A DNA stretch of 64,000 nucleotides from an uncultured virus (IMG/VR IMGVR_UViG_3300020056_000011) (Duplodnaviria; Heunggongvirae; Uroviricota; Caudoviricetes). Numbering within the stretch: position 1 is the stretch's first letter; each line of letters opens with the position of its first letter. Positions 410 to 14,141 of this stretch are shown here, piece by piece. Position numbers and translations under genes: made by a program. Under the pieces are notes generated by a model, which saw nothing but the letters and a program-made list of their open reading frames with translations, was not told the origin of the DNA and ran no database searches. The DNA lies in the IMG/VR virus record IMGVR_UViG_3300020056_000011; one strand, written 5' to 3'.

Positions 410-743
410 GTGAATATGTAGGATCTTACCAAAAAGGGTTTTGGGTTTTTAGCCAGCAAAAAAAATTTTTTTCGGAAAAACTTTTAGAAACACTGAAAGA
501 TTCTGGGGGGCTGGTGCTATACACTTCCGCCTCATTCCAGATGGGAACCCACAAATTTAAAGATACACGCTGAGGTTTAGGGGGGTATCTAATTCAAGTC
601 ACGAAAGCTAAACTGAGCTAAAGCTGTACGAAAGCTTTGCCGGGACCCTACTTCAGAAACTCTCAGAAACTCTCTAAAAGATGCTCATATGGGCACTCTT
701 TGTAACTTTTCTATTCATTTCTAGCAGATGAGATTCACAGAAT

Positions 744-1202: not shown

Positions 1203-1235
1203 AAAAAAAAAGAGCAGCCAAAGAAGGACTGCTCT
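1203..1235 (-). terminator. Intrinsic terminator
   Basis: AGAGCAGUC/GGCUGCUCU 9-bp stem (one G.U) followed by U-run on minus strand. Confidence 0.85.
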
Positions 1236-1486
1236 AAGTTACCCATATAGAAAGGAGACAGGGAAAAGAAGAAAAACTTTTTTCCTCATACGCCCAGCTA
1301 GTATCTCCAATCTCTCCGCACGGACTTATTGACGTTGCCGCTCTAGTTTGATTGAAACTAACATCTCTGGGTTTCACGTCACCGATATTTCACGGGCGAA
1401 TATATTCACCAGAGATCGTGCTTTCAGGTGGCCTGCCCTCCGCACGGACATATGAGGAAAAGAGTCTAAAATCTTTTCTTCTTACA
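1203..1486 (-). ncRNA. Putative structured non-coding RNA of unknown family (~280 nt)
   Basis: Bounded by promoter and terminator; no ORF in the track; 16-bp closing helix 1446-1461/1280-1295 with G.U pairs only on minus strand; several internal hairpins. Confidence 0.7.
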
Positions 1487-1492
1487 TATATT

Positions 1493-1521
1493 AATATAAG
1501 TGATTCGCAATGAAATGTCAA
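1493..1521 (-). promoter_or_regulatory. Sigma70-type early promoter with GANTC (CGAATCA) in spacer
   Basis: TTGACA-17-TATATT; TGATTCG at 1501-1507. Confidence 0.85.
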
Positions 1522-7887: not shown

Positions 7888-8556
7888 TCAATAAGTTTCT
7901 ATAATTTTATCAGCAATCCCATGTTTTATTGCTTCTTCTGGTGTCATCCATATGTCAGACTCTGGTAATAAATATTTTCTGATATAATCTTTCTTTTTTC
8001 CAGTACACTTGACATAATGTTCAACTAATTTCTCTGAAGAGATTTCAAATTGTTTTATTTTCGCATATAATTCATGTTCCTTGCCCTTTGACCCCCAGCT
8101 GTATTGATGCGACATGATGCTTGTGTTCTGTGTTAGGTATCTGTGTCCCTTCTCTCCACTCATCATTAGCAGCACACCACAGGACGCTATAGAGCCCATT
8201 CCATAGGTATAAACTGGTATTTTTGACTGTTTTATTACATCTATAAGATGAAATGCAGATGCAACCTCTCCGCCTGGCGAATTGATATATAGATGAATAA
8301 TCGGAGGCCTTTTGGGTGCGGGCATCAAATTATATTCCATAATCATTTTTACTAATGGCATACAATTTTCTTGATTGAACTCCTTATCCATAAAGAGAAT
8401 ACCATTTTCTTTCAATACAGTGCCTGGCTGTTTTTCAAATGTCAGGTCTCTTGGCATTGGTTCTGGTGGTGGAGTTTGAGTGATTGTATTTGGAATCAAA
8501 TCAATCTTTTCTTCTTCTTTTTTCTTTTTATTTGGTTTGCTCGTTTTGGCCGCCAT
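7888..8556 (-). CDS. clpP: ClpP-family protease proteolytic subunit
   Basis: IHLYINSPGG, GSIASCG (Ser), MSHQ (His), ESDIWMTPEEAIKHGIAD (Asp). Confidence 0.9.
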   Translation of the reverse strand: MAAKTSKPNKKKKEEEKIDLIPNTITQTPPPEPMPRDLTFEKQPGTVLKENGILFMDKEFNQENCMPLVKMIMEYNLMPAPKRPPIIHLYINSPGGEVASAFHLIDVIKQSKIPVYTYGMGSIASCGVLLMMSGEKGHRYLTQNTSIMSHQYSWGSKGKEHELYAKIKQFEISSEKLVEHYVKCTGKKKDYIRKYLLPESDIWMTPEEAIKHGIADKIIETY

Positions 8557-8995: not shown

Positions 8996-9967
8996 TTATT
9001 TCTCCTGTATCTGTCTTTCAAATTCTCTTAGTCGTTTGTAGACACTCATTAATTCAATAATGGTAGGCCATGCTTTTAGTAAATACTGCATAGAACCTTC
9101 TACTCTACCAAACGCCCGAATAATTTGTTGCATTACACCCAATGTGACTGCACCAGCAACAATAGCGGGGGCAAGAAACACATAAGCACTCAAGACATTT
9201 GCCTGTAAGTATGCAATTCTACCTATATTGAAGTATAGGTATCTTATATAGGATTTAAAATGAATGCCTCTGACACCTTCAAACAATTCTTCAATAGTTT
9301 TAGGCCTGACTGTCTCATCGTCCTCTGCAATCACCAGAATTTTACGATATGCAGCCTCTTTCTTTTGCAAGTCATATTCAACACCTACAAGTCTCAGCAA
9401 CCATCCCAACCCAACGAGGAATAATGTGCCCCCAATCGACCAGACTAATGCACCTGTTACAAGTCCGTATTGCCAATCACCAAAGAAAAAGATGGGAATT
9501 CCCACACTCAATCCAAGTAAAATAGGCACAAATTGTATCAATACCATAATGGACTCAATAAAACTAGTACCAAGGCCTTCCATAATTCTACTAAACTTGA
9601 TAGTATCTTCTTGCACACGTTGAGCAGCACCTTCGATAGTTCTAGCCTTATCATAGACAGAATGATACCATTCTACCATTGCGGTTCGCCATCTAAACAG
9701 ATAATGTGCTGTGAAAAACGATATTGCGACTGCAATTGCAACATATATTGCTGCGAGTGTAATAAAGGACGCTAGACTGGCCCAATATTCTCCTATTGTA
9801 ATGGCATTAGGTTCTGCTAATGCCCTTTGGATCATGTCGTAAAACTGTCCAAACCATTCATTAATTTTTACATCAATTTGTACTTGTACCCAAAGTGATG
9901 ATAAGATTATTGCGGAACCAATCCAACTCCATAATAACCACTTTCGCTCTTTAAAAAATCTAAACAT
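8996..9967 (-). CDS. sbmA: SbmA/BacA-family inner-membrane peptide transporter
   Basis: INEWFGQFYDMIQRAL, HYLFRWRTAM, IEGAAQRVQEDT, QKKEAAYRK, AGAVTLGVMQQI motifs; multiple TMs; no ATPase domain. Confidence 0.88.
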   Translation of the reverse strand: MFRFFKERKWLLWSWIGSAIILSSLWVQVQIDVKINEWFGQFYDMIQRALAEPNAITIGEYWASLASFITLAAIYVAIAVAISFFTAHYLFRWRTAMVEWYHSVYDKARTIEGAAQRVQEDTIKFSRIMEGLGTSFIESIMVLIQFVPILLGLSVGIPIFFFGDWQYGLVTGALVWSIGGTLFLVGLGWLLRLVGVEYDLQKKEAAYRKILVIAEDDETVRPKTIEELFEGVRGIHFKSYIRYLYFNIGRIAYLQANVLSAYVFLAPAIVAGAVTLGVMQQIIRAFGRVEGSMQYLLKAWPTIIELMSVYKRLREFERQIQEK

Positions 9968-14108: not shown

Positions 14109-14141
14109 AATATAAGTGCTGACAAGCACAATGTCAAGGGC
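14109..14141 (-). promoter_or_regulatory. Sigma70-type early promoter
   Basis: GCCC-TTGACA-17-TATATT. Confidence 0.85.

Follow-up and report, generated by a model that had tools for sequence, protein, structure and literature searches.

Organization of the locus

The window, meaning the whole stretch of 64,000 nucleotides analysed here, corresponds to positions 1-64000 within a virus record of 122,676 bases. The same phage is present in four IMG/VR contigs at 99.9-100% identity, one of which is a complete record of 203,815 bases (G020), and the RNase H-type gene in the window shares less than 50% identity with its matches in T4-like phages. The RNA under study lies close to one end of the window, and the following features were assigned to it:

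1493..1521, minus strand: sigma-70-type early promoter, TTGACA-17-TATATT (consensus scan, 11/12 match)
1474..1483, minus strand: purine-rich leader that can pair with 1275-1266, lengthening the closing helix (from the sequence; this phage only)
1273..1467, minus strand: conserved RNA core of 195 nt with a four-way junction (alignments A1 and A2, pair counts)
1446..1466, minus strand: 5' strand of P1, forming 21 bp with 1295-1275 (98.1% paired, two-sided change in 9/21 pairs)
1418..1445, minus strand: P2 arm, with a 4-bp stem, a purine-rich internal loop, a 2-3 bp stem and an apical loop (in every relative)
1430..1433, minus strand: self-complementary tetramer GGCC, a predicted symmetric kissing loop (paired at both positions in 77/77)
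1363..1416, minus strand: P3 arm, variable and missing in some relatives (97.3% paired, two-sided change in 4/5 pairs)
1369..1411, minus strand: optional insert in the P3 arm (in 32/89; stem 99.3% paired, one two-sided pair)
1297..1362, minus strand: P4/P5/P7 arm, truncated or replaced in some relatives (P4 99.5%, P5 99.6% and P7 100% paired)
1275..1295, minus strand: 3' strand of P1 (AGGAG ribosome site in 34/89 relatives, erased in the window)
1236..1272, minus strand: C/U-rich tail (found only in this phage)
1203..1235, minus strand: intrinsic terminator hairpin and U run (consensus scan; terminator 1235-1211)

An earlier sequence-only reading had called the near-consensus promoter and the intrinsic terminator, and both were recovered by the scan. 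Transcription is predicted to start near 1486-1485 and would run from the promoter at 1521 to the terminator at 1235. The RNA of about 280 nt put forward in that reading agrees with the length of the unit (approximately 283 nt), but the conserved part amounts to only about 195 nt, with the leader and the tail seen only here; the 10-bp match of 1483-1474 with 1275-1266 is present in the sequence. The same promoter, followed by a similar leader, occurs again on the minus strand of the window at 14137, 58846, 60193 and 60847, and the shared spacer and leader are conserved beyond the two hexamers. This recurrence indicates that the promoter is the ordinary early type of this T4-like marine phage. 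The tail (1272-1236) resembles an anti-ribosome-site sequence and gave weak matches to the GcvB, NmsRb and suhB models; as an antisense seed it had no outstanding target among 1056 start regions, in a comparison made without a control. The RNA and its downstream gene are flanked by long intergenic regions (about 480-700 and 1540-1760) in which short words recur and A/T runs occur.

RNA-library runs containing this stretch carried salt marsh and marine labels. One run (X1) yielded a contig identical to 1254-1437 at a depth of 37.3, compared with 2.4-16.1 for the other contigs of this phage, with 9/30 bins covered. A second run (X2) yielded a contig spanning 1249-1430 at a depth of 3.9 with 27/30 bins covered, a pattern that looks like DNA or flat transcription. 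These are assembled contigs, which carry no strand or level, from runs found using this very stretch and from RNA libraries that may hold DNA, and they give a weak hint of expression.

A family of relatives in viral and metagenome contigs

Motif scans and profile searches of viral and metagenome contigs, followed by a rule-based pick, gave 198 matches among 664 loci (which overlap between scans), from which 89 distinct sequences were obtained. The RNA, described earlier as an orphan, thus has at least 89 distinct relatives of 82-226 nt, a few of which differ only at their flanks; every one of them comes from a virus or metagenome contig. Since two of the motif scans covered 39/64 and 27/64 parts of the contigs, the family must be larger than 89. 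It is worth noting that the search patterns specified either portions of the 3' arm or the sequences flanking the first arm, which makes invariance at those positions partly a product of selection by the search, and that the loop tetramer was absent from every pattern. Contigs from RNA libraries included variants with a different 3' flank.

Neither cellular genomes nor annotated phages yielded a family member. In cellular genomes, 120 motif matches (29/64 parts) included no family member, and a full scan gave no exact match to a 22-base motif. BLASTN of the window unit and of one short relative against 50,697 annotated phages returned no match, and model R1 found nothing in five cultured T4-like phages (0/5). 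In loci surrounding genes related to the downstream 90-aa gene (41 loci) or to the 119-aa gene (80), family members occurred only in this phage, and a whole-record search of 50 such records, mostly fragments, identified two with the RNA.

Rfam 15 gave no family match at the gathering threshold in the window and none over the RNA in the loci of 21 relatives. When the limit was relaxed to E 10, eight sub-threshold matches appeared, mostly on the tail and terminator, and were rejected as chance or terminator-type. We found no published description of the RNA, although the supplementary alignments of Fremin 2023 (PMC10690425) and Weinberg 2017 (PMC5737381) may list it as an unnamed candidate; four supplement files of Fremin 2023 (PMC10690425) had no motif matches, and the Ocean-VI alignment rows in the supplement of PMC2864571 are unlike this RNA. 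The family is therefore uncatalogued, being outside Rfam 15 and with no published description found.

Fold, strand and coding potential

The structure was first predicted by RNAalifold on 28 rows and then evaluated on alignment A2, which holds 76 of the 89 relatives together with L313 (77 rows, effective size about 29 at 92% identity). Relatives left out of A2 were those with very short or foreign arms (L632, L575, L611, the second copy of L551, L585, L639, L627, L405, L638 and L543) and those that were cut or near-duplicate (L217, L207 and L418). Over the 77 aligned relatives, 98.5% of the cells were paired and 18/49 pairs showed two-sided change. None of 500 shuffles scored as high, in a test that ignores kinship and uses a structure derived from the same sequences, and slid controls were 38-47% paired. 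The comparative support for this fold is strong. The P4/P5/P7 arm is built from P4 (1362-1357/1302-1297), P5 (1356-1350/1312-1306) and P7 (1341-1338/1323-1320), of which P5 had four two-sided pairs and P4 and P7 had none; the end loop of the P7 arm (1336-1325) is 12 nt long and conserved. The constant core consists of the 21-bp helix P1 and the short arm P2, and the top of P1 and the P2 internal loop are the most conserved in sequence in all forms. The ends of the RNA are sharp, with invariant ACU/AGU.

Both strands folded better than shuffled controls: for 1203-1490 the minus strand reached -95.6 kcal/mol (z -4.55) and the plus strand -80.1 kcal/mol (z -3.58), with 0/200 shuffles as good for either. 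In all 25 sampled relatives (25/25) the sense strand folded better than the antisense (median z -5.1). RNA lengths fell into all three classes modulo 3 (35/29/25), and in 85/89 relatives neither strand had an ATG frame of 30 aa. The earlier remark that there is no ORF holds in the sense that none is conserved, while chance frames of 35-53 aa are present. Because of the covariation, the lack of a conserved frame and the lack of an Rfam match, the earlier call of a minus-strand structured, uncatalogued ncRNA with its own early promoter and terminator can be upheld, and it is all but certain that this is a real structured RNA.

Several internal elements had been proposed from the window sequence alone. 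The 16-bp helix 1461-1446/1295-1280, including its two G.U pairs, is present and was confirmed as the closing helix, and the P3 helix AUCUC/GAGAU was 97% paired across relatives. For the proposed CGUGC/GCACG stem enclosing CAGG/CCUG, the GUGC/GCAC portion (P2) was 96% paired across relatives but CAGG/CCUG only 64%. The UUAGUUU/AAACUAG hairpin was pairable in 96.6%, but with one-sided changes only, and it excludes a covarying alternative; it may be an alternative conformer, and it is lost in capped forms that retain P4/P5. A UGACGU/ACGUCA pseudoknot found no support: in the 29 rows with both halves five of the six pairs were kept, the middle pair was broken in 21/29, two-sided change was absent, the 5' half was missing from 48/77 rows, and the 3' half was equally conserved in rows without it. 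A 12-nt direct repeat was exact in 1/74 ungapped relatives, namely the window itself, and the recurring UGAAA was lacking altogether from 48/89 relatives. Pooled, these internal elements had no excess of two-sided change (2 pairs compared with 2.8 in shuffles). The best-supported feature, a covarying palindromic loop, was absent from that reading.

Modular arms and an optional insert

All parts 3' of P2 can be lost or swapped among relatives, and forms of 82, 107, 125, 141, 157, 195 and 226 nt were observed. The 82-nt form (L632) consists of P1 and P2 alone; in the 107-nt form (L575) P3 and P4 are reduced to stubs; the 125-nt form (L609) has a capped P5; the 141-nt form (L391) is without P3; and the 157-nt forms are without the 40-nt insert. 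Unrelated arms were found in L639, L627, L638 and the second copy of L551. The capped forms L554, L552 and L585 end at the P5 tip in short near-palindromic inverted repeats, which may be scars left by deletions or a further site of self-pairing.

In the insert, an (A/U/G)GAAUA strand is combined with a 5-bp stem, UGAAAUAY at the apex and one more motif, CGUGAAA. Among its 32 occurrences the first motif was AGAAUA in 15, UGAAUA in 13, GGAAUA in three and another sequence in one, and UGAAAUAY was found in 31/32. The tRNA-elbow module has been defined by two T-loops ordered in this way, AG..A and UG..A (Lehmann et al., PMC3664808), and has been reviewed by Zhang and Ferre-D'Amare (PMC4810234). 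Judged by the motif definition in PMC3664808, the insert resembles a tRNA-elbow double T-loop, a likeness that we treat as a lead; in the window the first motif is UG..A, not AG..A. The possible correspondence to the double T-loop of the T-box apex lies in the (A/U/G)GAAUA strand, the short helix and the apical loop UGAAA, which follow the order seen there. Unlike the elbow modules of T-box and RNase P, however, the insert has a third UGAAA, is confined to 32 relatives and is accompanied by neither a specifier/antiterminator nor an RNase P core. Since it is missing from 57/89 relatives, it cannot be the core function.

The end loop of P7 contains GUCAA, which is the complement of the anticodon loop of alphaproteobacterial tRNA-Val(GAC) and also of the -35 core. 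When compared with the tRNA-Val(GAC) anticodon loop, the U allele of the P7 loop matches at 7/7 positions and the C allele of the window at 6/7, in a post hoc comparison without covariation; this complementarity is likewise a lead, and chance is possible. One relative, L203, has a different P7 loop with GUA.

A self-complementary loop and a predicted dimer

The tetramer at the tip of P2 was self-complementary in 89/89 relatives. Its states in A2 were GGCC (43), GAUC (23), CCGG (7), UCGG (2), GUAC (1) and GGCU (1), and its two pairs, with 33 and 9 two-sided changes, were kept in 77/77 rows. In a register control over the 89 relatives (15 distinct tips), 6/6 tetramers were self-complementary at this register, compared with 0/8, 0/8, 3/10, 0/9 and 1/8 at five other registers and a background of 6% (14% with G.U). 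An unbiased mutual-information scan ranked the adjacent columns 1432/1431 as the top MI-APC pair. Since adjacent bases cannot pair within one strand, their covariation makes a kissing homodimer likely, and the G.U variants in the tetramer point to RNA rather than DNA symmetry. On a tree of the family (143 columns, many weak forks) the six states required eight changes, the minimum being five; whole tip cassettes look mosaic or recombined, so that the independent palindrome changes may number about five. The palindrome core is 4 nt and extends to 8-10 nt in some relatives; a kiss of 4 bp would be weak without further contacts. Taken together, the comparative data give good support for a symmetric kissing dimer, and we consider that the RNA probably forms a homodimer through the P2 loop.

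Genomic context of the family

In nine of the 89 members a tRNA begins 2-6 nt past the end of the RNA, in 34 the base of P1 bears AGGAG, and the other 46, some with a promoter just upstream, have neither arrangement. The copy in the window stands alone between promoter and terminator. The AGGAG site was present in 33/37 members whose P1 5' strand has the corresponding C, versus 1/52 without it; the window keeps this C but its ribosome site is gone, a pattern suggesting that it descends from a copy embedded in an operon. The neighbors are shuffled small early genes; none of them is constant, as a dedicated partner would be, and the complete record G020 lacks the gene most often found downstream. 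Ribosomal protein bS21 was considered as a dedicated partner and rejected, as it was found in 2/25 records and 0/2 near-complete carriers. A single RNA locus per record was observed in 25/25 records, with no second copy in the 122,676-base source record. In one further record, L551, two tandem members with different loop palindromes and side arms (417-532 and 536-730, minus strand) are followed by tRNA-Pro.

A tRNA lay within 1 kb in only 10/55 members with full flanks, and six tRNAs are encoded roughly 7.3 kb downstream of the RNA in G020. A phage-encoded permuted alphaproteobacterial tmRNA was located at L070:2806-3151, just downstream of the family RNA and tRNA-Pro of that contig. The window itself encodes an SbmA/BacA peptide transporter (8996-9967, minus strand; Pfam E 1e-139), with a ClpP-like gene nearby (7888-8556). 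On the basis of the SbmA/BacA and cell-wall hydrolase genes in the window and of the tmRNA beside L070, the host is presumably an alphaproteobacterium.

Comparison with known RNA classes

ARAGORN detected no tRNA or tmRNA in the RNA unit. Size and context brought up manA (RF01745), an RNA of about 190 nt found in tRNA regions of marine T4-like phages, but it had no match in the phage's own record at E 10, its consensus is unlike that of this RNA, and, with a circularly permuted form in mind, inspection by eye showed none of the conserved manA words. Moreover, a distinct manA-like RNA is present in the tRNA cluster of this phage, outside the window and between tRNA-Gly and tRNA-Pro (L677:8495-8668, G020:C1:125494-125667; 51.8 bits, threshold 55.2, E 4e-11). 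A similar manA-like RNA occurs in another phage at L221:1501-1673.

The closest parallels for the loop come from RNAs that self-associate. In OLE RNA, the L9.3 loop switches from GGCC to either GAUC or AGCU, and cryo-EM shows an intermolecular kiss (Kretsch et al., PMC12286853). A palindromic loop with adjacent-base covariation, as in bridge B3 of OLE, was likewise found in the present family, including the GGCC/GAUC switch, and such covariation is read as intermolecular pairing in both. The family RNA is nevertheless far smaller, belongs to lytic marine phages, lacks an Rfam match and has a dimer that is predicted only. GOLLD and ROOL (PMC12286853) are also phage-encoded, structured, often near tRNAs and self-assembling via kissing loops, but the family RNA has no sequence or model match to them, is one quarter of their size and carries exchangeable arms. 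No OLE, GOLLD or ROOL model matched, and members of 82-226 nt fall short of the 600 nt or more expected of these classes. With only one self-loop, a dimer rather than a cage of the GOLLD/ROOL type is predicted. The HIV-1 dimerisation initiation site (PMC7357161) offers an analogy only, having a purine-flanked apical palindrome on a short stem; the family is a separate small RNA of DNA phages, and a role in packaging the genome is not implied. The PeSL cassettes described from T4-like phages (PMC4122927) are similarly intergenic among shuffled early genes, with an early promoter, terminator and ribosome site, but they occur as multiple near-identical copies per genome, whereas the family RNA is single copy and has a complex covarying fold; membership was rejected on that ground.

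Discussion

The family, its fold and strand, the self-complementarity of the loop, the modular arms and the changing genomic context are established by the comparisons above, and they frame the mechanism that we favor. The RNA is probably transcribed early in infection by marine T4-like phages, and cleavage within or next to the 21-bp closing helix would free the core from longer transcripts, with RNase P releasing it where a tRNA follows. Both RNase III and RNase P have roles in releasing such RNAs. Two copies would then join by symmetric P2 loop-loop pairing, and the homodimer would serve as a two-armed scaffold or decoy that presents exchangeable side domains to a host factor, in trans. Action mainly in trans appears likely, given the stand-alone copy in the window, the varied contexts and the want of a constant neighbor gene. 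For the full proposal, an early trans-acting homodimer whose exchangeable arms engage a host factor, most plausibly of the tRNA or translation machinery, we see roughly even chances. The side arms may bind ligands, and a partner in tRNA or translation is a tentative suggestion. A still more specific version is doubtful, namely a dimerising rod of about 80 nt acting as a chassis for swappable aptamer arms (a fourth natural tRNA-elbow clamp and a reader of the tRNA-Val(GAC) anticodon loop) that bind, shield or sequester tRNAs.

Several other explanations were weighed against this dimeric scaffold. The AGGAG at the base of P1, its linkage to the matching C and the pairable UUAGUUU/AAACUAG hairpin are what would be seen in a cis-acting leader whose closing helix masks the following gene's ribosome site until ligand binding or dimerisation opens it. 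That reading is nonetheless improbable, as 55/89 members are without the site, the window has it erased and a terminator next, nine members precede tRNAs and the downstream genes vary. An RNA-processing element, either an RNase III-type site or a new self-cleaving ribozyme, by which polycistronic early and tRNA transcripts are cut and stabilised, would suit the sharp ends, the two-turn closing helix and the placement of members flush between genes or shortly before tRNAs. But a copy alone between promoter and terminator leaves nothing to process, and the palindrome and cargo arms are left unexplained. The ribozyme reading in the earlier account gains no support, as no known self-cleaving family in Rfam scores and the mutual-information scan revealed no covarying pseudoknot core; we rate a processing element as rather unlikely. 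A monomer that binds one protein through the P2 internal loop, with the palindrome incidental, draws on the conservation of the P1 top and that loop in all forms and has a similarly small chance of being correct, since the tetramer takes six self-complementary states and none otherwise.

The two remaining explanations are weaker still. A 6S-like polymerase decoy, also raised from the sequence alone, could appeal to the long closing helix and to the P7 loop GUCAA as complement of the -35 core; it is very improbable, as there is no 6S match to E 10 and no central bubble between two long helices, and the P7 arm is dispensable. Most remote is a DNA-level recombination cassette, PeSL-like or a MITE, to which the shuffled small early genes around the RNA, the mosaic neighbors and loop cassettes and the one record with tandem copies would correspond. 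Against it stand the single locus per record and inverted ends that vary in sequence, and the G.U pairs and strand bias argue for selection on RNA.

To our knowledge, nobody knows the purpose of GOLLD, ROOL and OLE, which are large and self-assembling. The present family amounts to a natural deletion series (82-226 nt) built on a single predicted self-pairing loop that occurs as six palindrome alleles, and its short transcripts and natural compensatory variants make the need for phage-RNA dimerisation testable. If the insert is indeed a double T-loop, the family would represent a new class of tRNA-binding RNA and a route by which phages may control the tRNA pool.
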